This document shows positions 5,997 to 13,075 of a stretch of DNA of 13,075 nucleotides, piece after piece. The stretch covers positions 1-13,075 of the forward strand of contig JBQLZK010000113.1 of the NCBI GenBank assembly GCA_052168235.1, in the 5' to 3' direction. Numbering within the stretch: the first letter of the stretch is position 1; every line of letters begins with the position of its first letter. A program made the translations under genes and the position numbers. The DNA is from Thainema sp. (lineage in GTDB: Bacteria; Cyanobacteriota; Cyanobacteriia; Phormidesmidales; Phormidesmidaceae). The notes under the pieces are model-generated. The model saw only the letters and a program-made list of their open reading frames with translations, did no database searches and was not told the DNA's origin.

Positions 5997-6513
5997 AGGA
6001 AGTGCTGCTCTCGTTAGGTATAACTTTTGTGTTGTTGTTTAAACTTTGCGCTCGAAACTAAAATTTACGCAGCTTTTTCTAGGGATTTACTGCTAAGAAA
6101 ATGACCAAAATTCGTGGCTAATCAAAACTTAGAATTGATTTAAGATTTCCCTTGGTGGTTTAAAAATCATCCACGCTATGCTGCAAGTGTGTGGCCTGTG
6201 GTGATAGCCCAAGTCGCTATTGGTATAAGTTTCTTTGGCATCAGTAGGCGAACGTAATTCAAAGCACAACAGTTCCCATGACAGAAGTTCACACGACAGA
6301 TCTAAGCTTGGTTGAATTAGTTGAATTAAAAGTAAGCAACCCAGCGTGAATATCTTAATGCTGGATTTGCGATCGCATCATCCATTCCCAAACATCCTCA
6401 AAAAAGCTGCCTACTGATCAAGTATTTCTACTCATCTGTCGGACTCACCAGCCTCATAAAAACCGAACACTAGAAGCAAACATTCACAATCTTAATGATT
6501 GGGAGATCTCCCT

Positions 6514-8835
6514 ATGACCGCAGTGAATTTAAATCAAGAAATTAGTCTTGCGGGACTTAACCTAACCAACCTAAAGCAGCCGGATATTAATACGTTGACT
6601 CAAGTGCAGCCTCACGGTGTGCTGTTGGTATTGCAGGAGTCAGATCTAACCGTGCTACAAGTGAGCCGAAATACCCGCACAGCACTGGGATTGCCGCCAG
6701 AAGAGGTACTCGGCAAAACTCTAGATGACTTACTCGATCCCTATCAGGTTGATCAATTCCGGACTGGACTGTATTACGAAAACTTGGACATTATTAACCC
6801 GACTAAAGTTTGGGTGAAGCGCCAGGGAGATGACTACGGCGTTTACGATGCCATTTTTCACCGCAGCGCAGATGGGTTCTTGATTGTGGAGTTGGAACCC
6901 GCTCTGACGCAGGAAACTATTCCCTTCCTGAGCTTTTATCACCTCGCTAGAGCTTCGATCAGCCAGCTTGAGGCAACGCCGAATCTAGTGGATTTCTGTC
7001 GCATCATTGTCCATGAGGTACGTCGCGTCACTGGTTTTGACCGGGTGATGCTCTACAAATTCGACGATGACGGTCATGGTGAGGTGCTAGCTGAAGAGTT
7101 AGTTGAGGGTATGGAATCCTATCTGGGTCTATATTTCCCAGAATCAGATGTACCACAGCCTGCCCGCAAGATGTTCCTCTCCAATTGGATTCGGGTGATC
7201 CCCGATGCCAAGGCGGAACCTGTCGATTTGTATCCGGCCAATAATCCCGTGACGGGCCAGCCAACGGATTTAATCATGTCCGTTCTGCGTCAGCCCTACC
7301 GCTGCCATATTGAATACCTCAGCCACATGCAGGTGGGATCGTCGCTGACCATTTCGCTGATGAAGGATCAGAAGCTCTGGGGTCTAATTGCCTGCCACCA
7401 CCGTACACCCAAGCAGGTGCCTTACGAACTGCGGAAAGCCTGTGAATTTCTGGGTCGGGTGATTTTCTCTGAAATCTCCACCCGCGAAGAGGAAGCCGAC
7501 CATAACTACCGGATGAAGCTGGCTCAGGTGCAGTCCCGGTTAGTTGACCGGATGGCGCAGGAAGACTACTTCGTGCATGGTCTGGTGCAGCAGGAGCCGA
7601 GTCTGCTGGACTTGGTTGACGCCAAAGGGGCCGCGATTTGCTTCAACGGTCACTGGACAACGATTGGCCGCACGCCGTCTGAGGAAGAGTTGAACTATCT
7701 GGTGCAGTGGCTGAATAAGACCGTCGATGGCGAGATTTTTGAAACTAGTGCGCTGCCATTGGTTTACTCCGATGCCCAGCGATTCAAAGACGTAGCCAGT
7801 GGTTTGCTCGCAATCCCGATCTCGAAGCGCAGCTACGTGCTGTGGTTCCGACCGGAAGTCATTCAAACCGTCAACTGGGGCGGCGATCCGAATAATGCTT
7901 ACACATTAGAAGGTGAAGCTGACAATCAGTGGCTCTGTCCCCGTAAGTCTTTCCATCTCTGGAAAGAAACAGTAAAGCTGCAGTCGCTGCCCTGGAAATC
8001 GGTGGAGATTCGGGCGGCACTAGAACTGCGTAAAGCAATCGTCAACATTGTTCTGCGACAGGCGGAAGAGTTGGCCTTACTGGCTCAGGATCTGGAGCGT
8101 TCGAATGCCGAGCTGAAGCGGTTTGCCTACGTTGCGTCCCATGATTTGCAGGAACCGCTAAATCAGGTGGCTAACTTTGTGCAGCTTCTGGAAATGCGCT
8201 ACGATGCCGAGCTGGGTCAAGACGGTAAAGAGTTTATTGGCTTTGCCGTTGAGGGCGTCAGCCTGATGCAGACCCTGATCGACGATGTATTGGCCTATTC
8301 CAAGGTTGATCTGAAGGGGATTGATCGGGAGCTGATCGACGTGCAGGATTCGCTGGATCAAGCGATGAATAATCTGCGCGGACGGATTGCGGACGCCAAC
8401 GCTGCGATTACCGTGGATTTATTGCCGACCATCGTGGCCGACGGCACGCAGCTCATGCAGCTCTTCCAGAACCTGATTGGCAACGCGATTAAGTTCCGCA
8501 AGCCGTCAGAGCTACCGCGCATCCACATTGGCGTGCAGCGTCAGGAAGATGCTTGGCTGTTCTCAGTCAAGGACAACGGCATTGGCCTTGACCCACAGTT
8601 TGCCGAGCGCATTTTCATCATCTTCCAGCGGCTTCATACTCGGGATGAGTATCCCGGTTCCGGTATGGGACTGGCGATCTGTAAGAAGATTGTCGAATGT
8701 CATCGGGGCCGCATTTGGGTTGAATCCCAAGTGGGAGAAGGCGCAACGTTTTATTTCACCATTCCGGTTGAAGGACGCGATCGCAATCATGGTAATGGAC
8801 GAAAAGCCCAAACGTATCTTTTTGATCGAGGATAA
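6514..8835 (+). CDS. cph1: Cyanobacterial phytochrome (Cph1/CphA type): PAS-GAF-PHY-HisKA-HATPase
   Basis: QPHG PAS start, GFDRVMLY, PESDVP, bilin-binding Cys in the GAF domain (YRCHIEY, codon 7303-7305), LWGLIACHH, WGG and PRKSF tongue, H-box ASHDLQEPL, N/G1/F/G2 boxes. ATG 6514 follows GGAG at 6502-6505. Confidence 0.95.
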   Translation: MTAVNLNQEISLAGLNLTNLKQPDINTLTQVQPHGVLLVLQESDLTVLQVSRNTRTALGLPPEEVLGKTLDDLLDPYQVDQFRTGLYYENLDIINPTKVWVKRQGDDYGVYDAIFHRSADGFLIVELEPALTQETIPFLSFYHLARASISQLEATPNLVDFCRIIVHEVRRVTGFDRVMLYKFDDDGHGEVLAEELVEGMESYLGLYFPESDVPQPARKMFLSNWIRVIPDAKAEPVDLYPANNPVTGQPTDLIMSVLRQPYRCHIEYLSHMQVGSSLTISLMKDQKLWGLIACHHRTPKQVPYELRKACEFLGRVIFSEISTREEEADHNYRMKLAQVQSRLVDRMAQEDYFVHGLVQQEPSLLDLVDAKGAAICFNGHWTTIGRTPSEEELNYLVQWLNKTVDGEIFETSALPLVYSDAQRFKDVASGLLAIPISKRSYVLWFRPEVIQTVNWGGDPNNAYTLEGEADNQWLCPRKSFHLWKETVKLQSLPWKSVEIRAALELRKAIVNIVLRQAEELALLAQDLERSNAELKRFAYVASHDLQEPLNQVANFVQLLEMRYDAELGQDGKEFIGFAVEGVSLMQTLIDDVLAYSKVDLKGIDRELIDVQDSLDQAMNNLRGRIADANAAITVDLLPTIVADGTQLMQLFQNLIGNAIKFRKPSELPRIHIGVQRQEDAWLFSVKDNGIGLDPQFAERIFIIFQRLHTRDEYPGSGMGLAICKKIVECHRGRIWVESQVGEGATFYFTIPVEGRDRNHGNGRKAQTYLFDRG

Positions 8836-9235
8836 TCGGGGCGATATTCGACTGATTCAAGAAGCCCTCAAGAGCAGTAATGTACCTTGCGAGGTCGAGA
8901 TTGCTCGCGATGGCATGGAGGCAATGGCCTACCTGCAGCAGGATGGGGAAGATGCGATCGCACATCGTCCCGACCTCATCCTGCTGGACTTGAACCTGCC
9001 GAAGAAAGATGGTCGGGAGGTGCTAGCTGAAATCAAGGCTGACGAAGCGCTCAAGCACATCCCGATTATCGTGCTGACGACATCCCGCAATGAGGAGGAC
9101 ATTAGCAAGAGCTATGATCTATACGTGAACTGCTATATCTCCAAATCGCGGAATCTAGCGCAACTGTTCAAAATCGTTCGAGGGATTGAGGCATTTTGGT
9201 TAGAGACAGCCAAACTACCGTCCAACGGCCCTTAG
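8789..9235 (+). CDS. rcp1: Phytochrome cognate response regulator Rcp1/RcpA
   Basis: IFLIEDNRGD, PDLILLDLNLPKKDGREVL, VLTTS, NCYISK and FWLE motifs; directly follows cph1. Start is ATG 8789 or 8795, overlapping the cph1 3' end. Confidence 0.93.
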   Translation: MVMDEKPKRIFLIEDNRGDIRLIQEALKSSNVPCEVEIARDGMEAMAYLQQDGEDAIAHRPDLILLDLNLPKKDGREVLAEIKADEALKHIPIIVLTTSRNEEDISKSYDLYVNCYISKSRNLAQLFKIVRGIEAFWLETAKLPSNGP

Positions 9236-11271
9236 GCAAACCGCTCGTCAACGTCCTGCTGATTGAGGACAATGTGGCAGAAGCTCGTCTGATCCAAGAA
9301 GTCCTCAAAGGAACGCCACGCAGCCGCTTTGTCCTGTCCCACGCCAAGCGCTTGGGAGAAGCGATTGAGCGGCTCGGTGCTGATTCGTTTGACGTGGCAC
9401 TGCTGGATCTGACGCTGCCGGACAGTAGCGGCTTGGAGTCCCTGGATCGGCTGATTCGGGATGCGCCAACTCTGCCGATTGTGGTGTTAACGAACACCAA
9501 CGATGATGACTTAGCCGTGGAAGCGGTGCGGCACGGAGCGCAGGACTATCTGATGAAGCGGCAGATGAACCAAGAGCTACTGGTGCGATCGCTGCGCTAC
9601 GCGATTGAGCGCAAGCAAACCGCTGTAGCGCTGCGGCAGGCGAATGAGGCGCTGGAAGAGCGGGTGCAGGAGCGCACAGCCGAGTTAGAAACGGCCAACG
9701 AGCAACTGCGCCAAGAAGTCGTGCAGCGCCAGCGGGTTCAGGAACGGCTGACGTTGGCTCAAAAAGCAGCCAAAATGGGCGCGTTTGAGTGGGATATCCC
9801 CTCGGATCAAATTAGATGGGGCGTGGAATTAGAGAAGAGCGCAGCACAGACTACTGCTGATTCACTCGCATCCTTGAAATCCTCTGTATCAGGCAGCTTT
9901 GGCAACTATCAGAGCAAATGGATCTGGACACTGGATCCCAATGACTTAGAGCGAGTTGAACAGGAATTGCACCAAGCTGTCCAGTCCGGACAGGGGTTGA
10001 ATACAGAGTTTCGTATTTCTGATGATGCAGGCAAGGTGCGGTGGATTGCGATTCAAAGCAGCTTATTTACTAATGTAGCGGGCCATCCTCTACGGCTGCT
10101 GGGCATCTACATGGACATTACCGAGAAGAAGCACCTAGAAGAACAGTTCCTGCGGGCGCAACGGCTGGAAAGTTTAGGGACGCTTGCTAGCGGCATCGCT
10201 CATGATTTAAACAATATCCTAACCCCCATTCTACTAGCAGTCCAACTGCTACCTCGTATGATGCCCCATCTCAATGAACCAACTCGTCAACGGCTAGAAA
10301 TTCTAGAAAATAGCGCTCACCGAGGCGTTGATTTAGTGAAGCAAATTCTTGCGTTTGCCCGAGGAGTAGAGGGTAAGCGCTTCAGCCTGCAAGTTAGCCC
10401 GCTGCTGAAGGAAATTAACAAGTTAGTGCGGCAAACGCTGCCCAAGTCGATTGAAATTCAAGCTGACATTGATCCTAATCTGTGGACGGTGTCCGGCGAT
10501 GCGACTCAACTGCATCAGGTGTTTATGAATCTCTGCGTCAATGCCCGCGATGCGATGTCGAACGGTGGCACGTTGCAAATTACGGCAGAGAACAAGCTGG
10601 TGGATGAGCAGTTGGCTCAACTGCATTTAGAGGCACAGGTTGGACGCTACGTCCTAATCACCATCAGTGATACGGGCTCCGGCATTCCACCCGATATTCT
10701 GCATCGAATTTTCGACCCCTTTTTCACGACTAAAGAGGTTGGTAAGGGTACGGGACTAGGTCTATCAGCGGTTTTGGGAATTGTTAACAGCCACGGTGGC
10801 TTTATTGATGTCGTGAGCGAAGTAGGTAGTGGCAGCCAATTTAAGGTTTATTTACCAGCAACGGAGGAGGCTGTGCCCAAACCGATCGATTCCCTGGATC
10901 TACTGGCTGGACATGGCGAGTTAGTTTTAGTCGTAGATGATGAACCTGCTATCTGCGAGATTACCCAGACGACGCTCGAAGCCTACAATTATCGAGTAAT
11001 AACAGCTCAAGATGGCGCAGATGCGATCGCACTTTTAGCGGAGCATAAAGACGACGTTTACAGCGTCCTGATGGATTTAATGATGCCCAATATGGATGGC
11101 CTGTCAGCTATTCCAGTTATGCGCCGCATTAGTCCTAATCTACGAATCATTGCCACTAGTGGCTTAAACTCTACCGATGCTGCTGCCCAGGCCGAAAAGC
11201 TTGGCTTTCAAGGCTTTTTACCAAAACCTTTTGCGGCACAAGAATTACTACAAATTTTGAGATCAGAGTAG
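9196..11271 (+). CDS. Hybrid sensor histidine kinase (REC - coiled coil - PAS/PAC - HisKA - HATPase - REC)
   Basis: N-terminal REC (LLIEDN, LLDLTLPD), PAC motif (RWI...MDITEKK), H-box GIAHDLNNIL, N-box NLCVNARDAM, FDPFFTTK..GKGTGLGL, C-terminal REC (VVDDE, LMDLMMP, KP). The TTG 9196 start is uncertain. Confidence 0.93.
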   Translation: MVRDSQTTVQRPLGKPLVNVLLIEDNVAEARLIQEVLKGTPRSRFVLSHAKRLGEAIERLGADSFDVALLDLTLPDSSGLESLDRLIRDAPTLPIVVLTNTNDDDLAVEAVRHGAQDYLMKRQMNQELLVRSLRYAIERKQTAVALRQANEALEERVQERTAELETANEQLRQEVVQRQRVQERLTLAQKAAKMGAFEWDIPSDQIRWGVELEKSAAQTTADSLASLKSSVSGSFGNYQSKWIWTLDPNDLERVEQELHQAVQSGQGLNTEFRISDDAGKVRWIAIQSSLFTNVAGHPLRLLGIYMDITEKKHLEEQFLRAQRLESLGTLASGIAHDLNNILTPILLAVQLLPRMMPHLNEPTRQRLEILENSAHRGVDLVKQILAFARGVEGKRFSLQVSPLLKEINKLVRQTLPKSIEIQADIDPNLWTVSGDATQLHQVFMNLCVNARDAMSNGGTLQITAENKLVDEQLAQLHLEAQVGRYVLITISDTGSGIPPDILHRIFDPFFTTKEVGKGTGLGLSAVLGIVNSHGGFIDVVSEVGSGSQFKVYLPATEEAVPKPIDSLDLLAGHGELVLVVDDEPAICEITQTTLEAYNYRVITAQDGADAIALLAEHKDDVYSVLMDLMMPNMDGLSAIPVMRRISPNLRIIATSGLNSTDAAAQAEKLGFQGFLPKPFAAQELLQILRSE

Positions 11272-11289
11272 GGCAAATGGCATTCGTCT

Positions 11290-11649
11290 CTACGCAGGTC
11301 TTCTTTGAATCTGTTGGGTAGTGTCATCAAAACTGCGATCGCATCTTCGGTTTGCACGGTCTGATTGGCCTAAGCCGTAATTTCGGTAACAGTGCCAGAT
11401 GTGGGAGCCTGAATCATACGCAGGTCGCCAACTGGCCGAATGATGGCCGGAGCCTTGGCCGTGACGCTGTATTTGAATAAGCTCGCAAACGTCAACTCCC
11501 CCCCAAAGAGGCCGAGCAAGGCGATGCCGCCCAGTTTCGACCAGCGAGAAATGGGCGGCAAAAACGCGTCGGGGGTGACGGCTCGGAGTAGTATGGGCGG
11601 CTTAACGGTCACATCTGGAGAATCAAAAATTGATGAATGATCAGAACAT
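11290..11649 (-). pseudogene. Truncated HlyD-family membrane fusion protein of the cyanobacterial peptide-export (type I secretion) type
   Basis: FLPPISRW, a transmembrane segment, KYSVTAKAPAIIRPVGDLRMIQAPTSGTV. In-frame TAG at 11370-11372, after which similarity continues (ANQTVQTEDAIAV). A 1-nt frameshift at about 11329-11332 then gives DDTTQQIQ. The rest of the gene is missing. The start region is probably also frameshifted (ATG 11649 is out of frame with GTG 11612). Confidence 0.85.
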
Positions 11650-11838
11650 GAGGCTCATCGCCCAGGTTAAATGATCATAGGATTTCAGCTTAACTCGAAT
11701 ACGCTCATTGTTACCTCCCTGAAGATCGGCCTGAGTCTCTTCAGGAATTTCACACCATAAATTATTACTGGTGAGGCTGTTGCTGGCGCAGGATATTTGA
11801 TGATCTTTTATCTAACTATGTTGTGAATCTAATGTCAT
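11641..11838 (-). pseudogene. Double-glycine leader peptide gene 5 (core resembles ribosomal protein uS10 N-terminus), interrupted by an in-frame TAG
   Basis: Manual translation: MTLDSQHS*IKDHQISCASNSLTSNNLWCEIPEETQADLQGG|NNERIRVKLKSYDHLTWAMSLMF*. GGAG lies 8 nt before ATG 11838. TAG at 11812-11814. Confidence 0.75.
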
Positions 11839-11862: not shown

Positions 11863-12027
11863 TTAGATACCACTTTGTTGAGCAACGTGAGTTAGTTCAT
11901 GGGCTAGAAGACTGGATCCTCCAGAGAAAACTTGTGTCTCACAATCAGACAATTCAGTAAAATGCTTAGTCAGGTTTTCAAGATTAGAGCATTTATTTTG
12001 CTTATTTTGCTTATTTTGCTTATTCAT
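11863..12027 (-). CDS. Double-glycine leader peptide gene 4, 54 aa (core resembles the DUF4157 HExxH motif)
   Basis: Manual translation: MNKQNKQNKQNKCSNLENLTKHFTELSDCETQVFSGG|SSLLAHELTHVAQQSGI*. Intact ORF below the ORF-track size cutoff. Confidence 0.85.
   Translation of the reverse strand: MNKQNKQNKQNKCSNLENLTKHFTELSDCETQVFSGGSSLLAHELTHVAQQSGI
11993..12024. repeat. 9-bp tandem repeat (TTATTTTGC) x3.5 encoding NKQ repeats in the leader of peptide 4
   Basis: Copies at 11993, 12002 and 12011, plus a partial copy at 12020. Confidence 0.9.
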
Positions 12028-12163
12028 TGTTCTCAATTTAATTCGAGATCACCCAATCTGCGATCGCAGCCCCATCTCTAAACGATTCTGGAAGTGCGAT
12101 CGCAAACTCTAATTCAGGTTAAGACAGCCAGATCAAAAAACTGAATTTCAAACCTGGAGCTTA

Positions 12164-12318
12164 TCAAGTACCACCTTGTCCTGAACCATCACAAGGAAAC
12201 GAGTAGCCGAAATCTTTGCCTCCGCTAAGAGTTGATTGCGTATCGTTCGACAGCTCTTGCCAAAGTGATGGTTTAGTTAACAAGTGTTGGGGGAAGGCTT
12301 TGCAATATTACGTTTCAT
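12164..12318 (-). pseudogene. Double-glycine leader peptide gene 3 (core resembles the PsaB FX-binding loop), 1-nt frameshift in the leader
   Basis: Adding one base to the G5 run at 12289-12293 gives MKRNIAKPSPQHLLTKPSLWQELSNDTQSTLSGG|KDFGYSFPCDGSGQGGT*. As written, the ATG 12318 frame stops after 13 codons. An in-frame TTG could give a shorter leader. Confidence 0.8.
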
Positions 12319-12378
12319 AGGATTTTCCAGTTACAGCAAAGTGTCTGACGATAAAGGATACAGCTAGAGCTGCTAGTC

Positions 12379-12600
12379 TTACGCATCCACACGTCCGCGC
12401 AAAGTTGCAAGTTCCGCTGAAAACTCTTCTTGGAGCCGTTGGGTGTTACTGGTTGCTGCCGCAAAGAGGAAAATTACGCTGCCGCCTGAGATTGCTTCCG
12501 TTTCGTTTTCTGAAAGCTCTATTGCATCAAGGACAGGCAAAAGCTCGAGTTGATTTTGGTGTTTACCAGGTAAACCGTTTCTAAATTTTTTATTCTTCAT
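12379..12600 (-). CDS. Double-glycine leader peptide gene 2, 73 aa (core ends in an SLH-porin coiled-coil motif)
   Basis: MKNKKFRNGLPGKHQNQLELLPVLDAIELSENETEAISGG|SVIFLFAAATSNTQRLQEEFSAELATLRGRVDA*. AAGGAG (12607-12612) lies 6 nt before ATG 12600. Confidence 0.85.
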   Translation of the reverse strand: MKNKKFRNGLPGKHQNQLELLPVLDAIELSENETEAISGGSVIFLFAAATSNTQRLQEEFSAELATLRGRVDA

Positions 12601-12686
12601 GAGCATCTCCTTTCCCTCAAAAGGGAAACAGGCTGGAATAGAATTTATTCGACTAAATTGCAATTTTATGATCGCAAATTTATATA

Positions 12687-12863
12687 CTAAAACTCTCCTC
12701 TCGCATCTGCTTGGACAACAACCTTCGTGAAGGCATCAAACATTCCGCCTTGAATTCTGCTCTGAGTCGTTTCAGGAATATCTTGAAGGAATAATATTTT
12801 CTGAATTTGTAGATATTTAGAAGAAAGCTGTCTCATGTTTGGTTTGGTTTGAGTACAGGCCAT
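12687..12863 (-). CDS. Double-glycine leader peptide gene 1, 58 aa (core resembles the phycocyanin beta N-terminus)
   Basis: Manual translation: MACTQTKPNMRQLSSKYLQIQKILFLQDIPETTQSRIQGG|MFDAFTKVVVQADARGEF*. AAGAGG lies 7 nt before ATG 12863. Confidence 0.85.
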   Translation of the reverse strand: MACTQTKPNMRQLSSKYLQIQKILFLQDIPETTQSRIQGGMFDAFTKVVVQADARGEF

Positions 12864-13012: not shown

Positions 13013-13075
13013 GATAAGGTCTATAGCGGTTCTCATTCGAATGAGGTACAGTAGCAGTCGTTTATGAACCAGTTG

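Follow-up and report, generated by a model that had tools for sequence, protein, structure and literature searches.

A decayed double-glycine peptide gene of Thainema sp. belongs to a family whose cores appear to join a uS10-like head to exchangeable tails

The window, by which we mean the whole stretch of DNA analysed here, is an entire contig of 13,075 bases (G000:C113, G000 being the host genome). Five small genes stand in a row on the minus strand, from 12863 down to 11641, and the leader of each ends in Gly-Gly. The last of the five, peptide 5, is followed by the remnant of a HlyD-family gene. The features are listed below.

12687 to 12863, minus strand: peptide 1, double-glycine leader and core MFDAFTKVVVQADARGEF, like the N-terminus of phycocyanin beta (14/18 against the host protein; TIGR01339, E 0.0013)
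12379 to 12663, minus strand: peptide 2, double-glycine leader and a core ending in LQEEFSAELATLRGRVDA, like the coiled coil of the SLH-OprB porin (15/18; NF033921, E 6e-5)
12164 to 12283, minus strand: peptide 3, double-glycine leader and core KDFGYSFPCDGSGQGGT, like the iron-sulfur loop of PsaB (15/17 against host PsaB; TIGR01336, E 3.2e-5)
11863 to 12036, minus strand: peptide 4, double-glycine leader and core SSLLAHELTHVAQQSGI, like the HExxH motif of eCIS_core/DUF4157 (PF13699, E 1.4e-5)
11641 to 11838, minus strand: peptide 5 precursor gene, 65 codons and a stop, with an in-frame TAG at codon 9
11812 to 11814, minus strand: the premature TAG, CAG (Gln) in the orthologue of genome G001
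11713 to 11811, minus strand: remaining double-glycine leader of peptide 5 (…NNLWCEIPEETQADLQGG), with no in-frame ATG, GTG or TTG after the TAG
11671 to 11712, minus strand: core head NNERIRVKLKSYDH, look-alike of the first strand of uS10, about residues 2-16 of that protein (PDB and profile searches)
11644 to 11673, minus strand: core tail HLTWAMSLMF, look-alike of a PsaA/PsaB transmembrane helix (ungapped ten-residue window scoring)
11303 to 11633, minus strand: what is left, some 110 codons out of 446, of a membrane-fusion gene of the HlyD family (alignment to G001)

Three consecutive sensor/response-regulator open reading frames of 778, 252 and 691 amino acids (6499-11271, plus strand) converge on the peptide row; the 691-residue frame encodes a hybrid kinase with receiver domains, and its 3' end abuts the point at which the HlyD gene is truncated. 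At the contig end (12930-13025) lies a repeat roughly 94 bases long that contains an inverted repeat; it has many near-identical copies on at least nine contigs of the host genome, occurs in the same-genus genome G001 as well, and probably broke the assembly here. The last 58 bases (13018-13075) have matches of 91-93% in other genera (G009, G006, G005), and in G031 a stretch of some 30 bases recurs many times at 97%. They are not a tRNA, and a tRNA scan of the whole window returned none.

The peptide 5 frame begins with an ATG at 11836-11838, with GGAG upstream, and ends with a TGA at 11641-11643. It reads MTLDSQHS, a stop, IKDHQISCASNSLTSNNLWCEIPEETQADLQGG, and then the core NNERIRVKLKSYDHLTWAMSLMF up to the terminal stop, and it is co-linear, without insertions or deletions, with an intact 65-residue orthologue in G001 (L003 1582-1779). 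Positions 11644-11712 of the minus strand encode exactly the 23 residues after Gly-Gly, the leader before them ending in ADLQGG. With L at -4, I at -12 and W at -15, the leader (…NNLWCEIPEETQADLQGG, then NNER…) has the double-glycine form of cargo for PCATs, the ABC exporters with a C39 peptidase domain. Its positions L, W, I, P, E, Q, A, G and G are invariant in four members of the family described below, and also in the homologue from genome G050. Peptide 5 has no match to the curated leader models TIGR01847 and NF038167 at E<=10, and none in Pfam or NCBIfam. An exporter gene is adjacent in the form of the HlyD remnant, 7 bases downstream; PCAT genes are absent from this contig, and two are present elsewhere in the host genome.

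Judging from its reading frame, peptide 5 of this genome is a dead gene, a pseudogene: the TAG at 11812-11814 interrupts the frame, no canonical in-frame start follows, and the profile search flags one TAG within its match to the gene. Contigs of two sequencing runs from one study (X2 and X4) have the same letters, including the TAG at codon 9. In run X3, from another study, position 11814 is a G, which restores CAG, but there is a one-base deletion at 11793, and a second one-base deletion falls in the HlyD remnant; these X3 readings are provisional, as each comes from one contig at a depth below 5. The HlyD partner has lost its start (the codon aligned to the TTG start of G001 is TCA, 11631-11633), contains a TAG at codon 88 (11370-11372; CAG in G001) and is shorter than the intact gene by about three quarters. 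Below about 11310 the likeness to the 446-codon gene of G001 is lost, shortly ahead of the 3' end of the histidine kinase gene that converges on it. A contig of run X3 (depth below 5) spans 11200-11596, so the truncation cannot be put down to faulty assembly of the present contig. The 80-residue HlyD remnant matches no family in Pfam or NCBIfam. The differing disabling lesions in the two strains would fit neutral decay following the loss of the exporter partner. The disabling stops in peptide 5 and in HlyD are both CAG to TAG changes relative to G001, and two of two is too few for an inference.

A word search with the same-genus orthologue of peptide 5 returned three 65-residue proteins, and an exhaustive search of 1.84 billion representatives with a profile returned four at E<=0.001. 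When 401 cyanobacterial genomes were searched in this way, strong matches came from G000, G001 and G050 only, G050 belonging to another family (E 2.6e-11). The leaders are homologous across all eight members. Their cores after Gly-Gly are as follows.

Peptide 5 of the window: NNERIRVKLKSYDHLTWAMSLMF
P0001 (the protein of G001): NNERIRIRLKPYDHLTWAMSLMF
P0002: NNERIRIRLKSYDHLTWAMSLMF
P0003: NNERIRVRLEPYDHLTWAMSLMF
P0005: NSQRIRIKLKAYDHAVWAMSLMF
P0004: ANEKIRIRLKSFDHRLENDTSYGAIRATFRF
G050: ANEKIRIKLKSFDHRLENDTSYGAIRATFRF
P0006: MNGRIRIKLKSYDHRALDESSLVIFSETISSQPFMRWRDRFLR

The uS10-like head is retained across the family and the tail is swapped, being like PsaA, like the porin C-terminus or like RbcL. 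Head and tail meet at one common residue, a His in peptide 5 and a Leu in P0004 and G050. The intact relatives occur in two settings, directly preceding a gene of the HlyD family or within an array that is followed by a PCAT gene. In G001 an intact HlyD gene of 446 amino acids, matching Pfam HlyD_3, lies 7 bases downstream of the orthologue; in G050 the order is an AraC regulator, at least nine double-glycine peptides and a PCAT. On the upstream side of its intact peptide 5 gene, G001 has a gene (L013 434-1588, G001:C117) for a collagen-repeat protein that contains a Peptidase_S74 (tail-fibre chaperone) domain.

The first-pass annotation, which was made from the letters of the window, had proposed that the core of peptide 5 resembles ribosomal protein uS10, and this proposal was borne out. 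When the 23-mer was searched with phmmer against 177,635 distinct PDB sequences, all 18 matches at E<=10 were to uS10/NusE, aligned at uS10 residues 2-19, the best being 7jil_o (QKIRIKLKSYDHML, E 0.044). A profile of 14 positions, built on the eight heads of the family and searched against all 140,716 six-frame open reading frames of the host of at least 30 residues, found peptide 5 itself (4.2e-9), then the rpsJ frame (E 0.0021, 20.8 bits), with the next match at E 2.5. The host rpsJ gene is thus the sole significant match of the eight-head profile in the genome apart from peptide 5, and uS10 is the sole matching family both there and in the PDB. The head contains the N-terminal strand motif [RK]-I-R-I-[RK]-L-K-x-[FY]-D, and core residues 3-16 line up with the same-numbered residues of uS10/NusE (PF00338). 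Unlike a true uS10, the peptide holds the first strand only, 14 aligned residues; against the whole domain of about 100 residues there is no PF00338 match at E<=10, and the true rpsJ lies elsewhere, at C2:225139-225423. The relatives extend the likeness: the heads of P0004 and G050 prolong the match to DHRL and that of P0006 to DHRALDES, the P0006 likeness spanning 17 residues with 10/17 identical to host RpsJ. Host rpsJ ranks best in the genome-wide search with P0004 and second best with P0006. The 23-mer of peptide 5 taken alone reaches 21.6 bits with its best non-self match in the host genome, below the 22.3 bits of the reversed control. The alignments therefore indicate a real uS10 likeness of the peptide 5 core, one that exceeds chance and whose confirmation comes chiefly from the family taken together.

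The kind of uS10 that is imitated requires more caution. The first-pass annotation had read the head as a non-cyanobacterial variant and had given KIRIKLKSYDH as typical of Bacteroidota and some other heterotrophs. The host rpsJ is single copy, its protein starts MATVQQQKIRIRLKAFDRRLLD, and the segment in question is KIRIRLKAFDRR, with QQKIRIRLKAFDRRLLD where KLKSYDH was sought. As a DNA pattern, the K-type motif I-R-[IV]-K-L-K-x-[FY]-D-H occurs in 2 of 401 cyanobacterial genomes, both times in double-glycine peptides (peptide 5 and one in G050); none of the rpsJ genes of these 401 sampled genomes matches it. The stricter pattern I-R-[IV]-K-L-K-S-Y-D-H was scanned in named species genomes and gave at least 116 stretches. 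Among the matches listed, which carry 80 titles, 77 are Bacteroidota, Ignavibacteria/Chlorobi or Balneolales, judged by names, the other three are a Clostridium sp., a Hyphomicrobiales MAG and an unnamed metagenome, and no title is cyanobacterial. The statement about Bacteroidota is therefore borne out. Its counterpart, that cyanobacterial RpsJ reads KAFDRR, does not hold in general: the rpsJ genes retrieved from other cyanobacterial families have IRIRLK[AG][YF]DH[RK]L in 10/10 loci, a biased sample, chosen for matching the peptide profile. The notion of a non-cyanobacterial variant stands in part, in that the K-type motif is absent from cyanobacterial rpsJ in the 401 genomes, and fails in part, since four of the eight family heads are R-type (IRIRLK or IRVRLE), the other four being K-type. 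At the K and S positions the window and G001 differ by AAG/AGG and TCC/CCC, two single transitions. The "Bacteroidota type" look of peptide 5 thus amounts to two conservative single-base steps from the sister species, in a pseudogene, and it should not be over-read.

The tail resembles photosystem I. We scored HLTWAMSLMF without gaps against 9,231,444 ten-residue windows of the six-frame open reading frames of the host. The best non-self matches were PsaA (HFVWAFSLMF, 42) and PsaB (HLVWATGFMF, 37), followed by 36, with a maximum of 35 for the reversed control; the PsaA and PsaB matches fall at homologous places. The tail of P0005, HAVWAMSLMF, scored 44 and 36, with a reversed maximum of 36. 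PsaA and the peptide 5 tail share 7 of 10 residues, although the BLAST E-value alone is weak (3.7). Peptide 5 has no Pfam match to the PsaA/PsaB family (PF00223, about 740 residues), the likeness being to a ten-residue helix segment, which we take to be that of the helix whose His ligates P700. In other relatives the tail has different models: that of P0004 and G050 matches the last 16 residues of the host SLH-OprB porin at 10/16, and that of P0006 matches RbcL (host ENINSQPFQRWRDRFL) at 13/16 (E 4e-4). The suggestions that the tail overlaps the HlyD start and that it is a read-through extension must both be abandoned. The stop of peptide 5 at 11641-11643 precedes the start-aligned HlyD codon at 11631-11633, no stop stands ahead of the tail, and YDHLTWAMSLMF is invariant in four members while their leaders diverge. 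In this comparison the tail is the most conserved part of peptide 5.

The sister peptides and arrays elsewhere follow the same plan. The leaders of peptides 2 and 3 align with NF038167 at 20.1 and 13.3 bits, under its cut-off of 32, and that of peptide 2 with TIGR01847 at 13.5 bits, under its cut-off of 15.7. The porin-like DNA of peptide 2 (window 12376-12436) is 76-87% identical over 50-65 bases to porin genes of other cyanobacterial families. A word search with the 47-residue stop-to-stop frame of peptide 3 returned no short relatives, which is a weak negative as small open reading frames often remain uncalled. A second host locus (G000:C46:58100-59400; L014 2055-3267) has an AraC-type regulator, two leader peptides, one with a cut site of G-S rather than G-G, and a 721-residue PCAT with the catalytic motif DCGAAC; one of its cores ends with a PsaB segment (11/11) and the other resembles a gp19-like tail-tube protein. 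Two host cores thus copy proteins of contractile injection systems (eCIS_core and gp19-like). The array of G050 has cores like pilin, ATP synthase c (13/14), two PsaB segments and a segment of an RTX protein. In the arrays of G083 and G399 (L019, G083:C52; L020, G399:C12) the cores are double or triple mosaics: one joins the AtpE C-terminus to the PsaB loop (21 residues, 90%, E 6e-10), another the CpcB N-terminus to the porin coiled coil and the IRGTLL segment of AtpE, and the leader of this CpcB-type peptide resembles that of window peptide 1. Against the host genome, 11 of 16 cores scored above the highest reversed control (24.3 bits) and five, peptide 5 among them, did not; the candidates were selected by a regular expression built for this analysis, and cores from other genomes were compared with the host genome only, which favours conserved proteins.

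Codon usage bears on the age of these likenesses. C46a agrees with psaB in 11/11 residues and in 4/11 codons, and peptide 3 in 15/17 residues with seven identical codons; identical codons among identical residues numbered 4/11, 7/15, 6/14 and 5/15. Because identical residues mostly use different codons and synonymous sites are saturated, the likeness is old and selected at the protein level rather than recently copied. Between the window and G001 the leader has 13 non-synonymous and 2 synonymous changes and the core 3 and 2. Recent copying of host genes was considered for peptides 1 to 4, C46a and the tail of peptide 5, and was rejected as most identical residues differ in codon. For the core of peptide 5, a frameshift or direct DNA copy of psaA/psaB was likewise set aside, the best local DNA match being 22 bases, and the other frames of psaA/psaB contain nothing like the head.

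The gene class itself is already known from a survey of cyanobacterial "bacteriocin" clusters (Wang, Fewer and Sivonen 2011, PMC3140520), and the mosaic pattern at the level of the family is the interesting result. As in the clusters described there, the precursors are short, their leaders end in GG, they form dense arrays beside HlyD and C39-ABC exporter genes, and modification enzymes are not nearby. Unlike those precursors, the cores here are mosaics of recognisable conserved segments, and peptide 5 is a pseudogene. In its text the survey describes the cores as little conserved, and the terms photosystem, phycocyanin, ribosomal protein, fragment and mimic are absent from that text. Among curated models, the "CTB family bacteriocin" (NF038167) and "bacteriocin_sig" (TIGR01847) are the ones with which the leaders of peptides 2 and 3 align below cut-off, and peptide 5 with neither at E<=10. 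Within open-access text, passages of PMC10986499 included, we found no description of cores resembling housekeeping proteins or of such mosaics. The EbfG proteins of Synechococcus elongatus are cyanobacterial GG-motif peptides that depend on the secretion motif and have a non-antibiotic role; their abstract (PMC4997328) differs from the present case in stating no likeness to housekeeping proteins. The closest parallel in layout is synthetic. Pept-ins and other amyloidogenic antimicrobials, as outlined in PMC8447941 and PMC9140876, contain a segment of the target's own sequence, in many cases two tandem segments accompanied by basic residues, and deplete the target through co-aggregation. This layout is shared by the mosaics, a likeness of possible working and not of descent: Pept-ins are man-made, whereas the mosaics are encoded in genomes. 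We found no natural, genetically encoded and exported counterpart of Pept-ins in the open-access literature.

The explanation that we favour, with moderate confidence, is that peptide 5 is a decayed double-glycine precursor whose core is a selected mosaic of a uS10 head and a PsaA/PsaB tail, in a family that may act by imitation. By comparison with the family, an intact copy would be a precursor of 65 residues, cut after Q-G-G by the C39 domain of the exporter, and its core of 23 residues would leave the cell through PCAT/HlyD. The head copies the N-terminal strand of uS10 and the tail the helix HFVWAFSLMF/HLVWATGFMF. The exported peptides may then act on other cells by imitating segments that their targets cannot change, and the imitation may interfere with the folding or assembly of the parent proteins. 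We infer that such mimicry, disturbing folding or assembly in other cells, is the most likely mode of action, and we put it forward tentatively. How a 23-mer would reach targets in the cytoplasm or the thylakoid is a point against this explanation.

Several alternatives have to be weighed against action by imitation. One could assume that an ordinary, hypervariable bacteriocin core with alternating basic and hydrophobic residues came to resemble a uS10 strand by chance. The head is indeed a simple amphipathic pattern (R-I-R-V-K-L-K), and the 23-mer of the window is not significant on its own against the host genome. Nevertheless, the unanimity of the PDB matches (18/18), the position of rpsJ as the only significant profile match in the genome (E 0.002 against 2.5 for the next) and the continuation of the match in relatives past the amphipathic part, to DHRL and DHRALDES, make this origin very improbable, and chance is already disfavoured. 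If, on the other hand, the cores were functionless scraps of host genes, joined to a leader cassette by illegitimate recombination, then the junction of head and tail at one residue (His in peptide 5, Leu in P0004 and G050), the swapping of tails between relatives and the decay of the window copy would all be expected. However, we consider this unlikely, as there is no copy at the DNA level (22 bases at best between the peptide 5 core and psaA/psaB, with codons mostly different), the same segments are recombined differently in at least five genomes of four families, and head and tail are conserved while the leaders drift.

The suggestion that the foreign pattern points to an inter-species role leads to a further alternative, in which the core is modelled on a Bacteroidota-type uS10 and acts on heterotrophs, for example on ribosome assembly or on functions of NusE. 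The K-type motif, found in two double-glycine peptides and in no rpsJ of the 401 cyanobacterial genomes, the best PDB match (7jil_o, QKIRIKLKSYDHML), the 77 of 80 Bacteroidota-group titles among the matches listed and the four K-type heads of eight are consistent with it. Yet the other four heads are R-type like cyanobacterial uS10, genuine cyanobacterial uS10 with IRIRLKAYDHRL is found in 10/10 retrieved loci, and each of the two residues K and S in peptide 5 is one transition away from the sister species, in a pseudogene. Drift between R and K is moreover not specific to uS10, a PsaB-like core having WAHEK where the host has WAHER, and the tails and sister cores copy cyanobacteria-specific proteins (PsaA/B, CpcB and the SLH porin). 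The reading of peptide 5 as a foreign variant with an inter-species role is therefore weak, and a foreign model for the core seems improbable. A different role for the mosaics deserves somewhat more credence, doubtful as it is: they may be exported building blocks, such as aggregation-prone pieces of matrix in the manner of EbfG, or mimics of lysis products that are sensed as a danger or kin signal. The source proteins, RbcL, PsaA/B, CpcB, porin, AtpE, pilin and uS10, are among the most abundant of the cyanobacterial cell. An AraC-type regulator stands at the start of arrays, and small GG-motif proteins enable biofilm formation in S. elongatus, according to the abstract of PMC4997328. A matrix, however, needs no faithful copies of specific motifs such as the iron-sulfur loop of PsaB. 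The present evidence does not separate matrix or signal roles from interference.

Returning to imitation, a wider and more speculative version of it can be proposed from the sequences: cyanobacteria may export, through PCAT/HlyD, libraries of peptides that copy the least changeable segments of the proteins most abundant in their phylum, uS10, PsaA/B, RbcL, CpcB, AtpE, porin and pilin, either as natural, resistance-proof interfering peptides that co-assemble or co-aggregate with these proteins in competitors, or as danger-signal mimics of lysis debris. As four of the eight uS10 heads have a form unseen in cyanobacterial rpsJ, some of them could perhaps be aimed at associates from the Bacteroidota group.

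Hundreds of cyanobacterial double-glycine precursor genes have been catalogued since 2011, and the products of nearly all of them are unknown. That the cores of one subfamily are selected mosaics offers a concrete and testable mode of action, in which every peptide points to a candidate target of its own. Should the family indeed act by imitation, nature would have an equivalent of the aggregation-inducing antimicrobials that have been designed, and microbial antagonism or signalling would gain a new principle.
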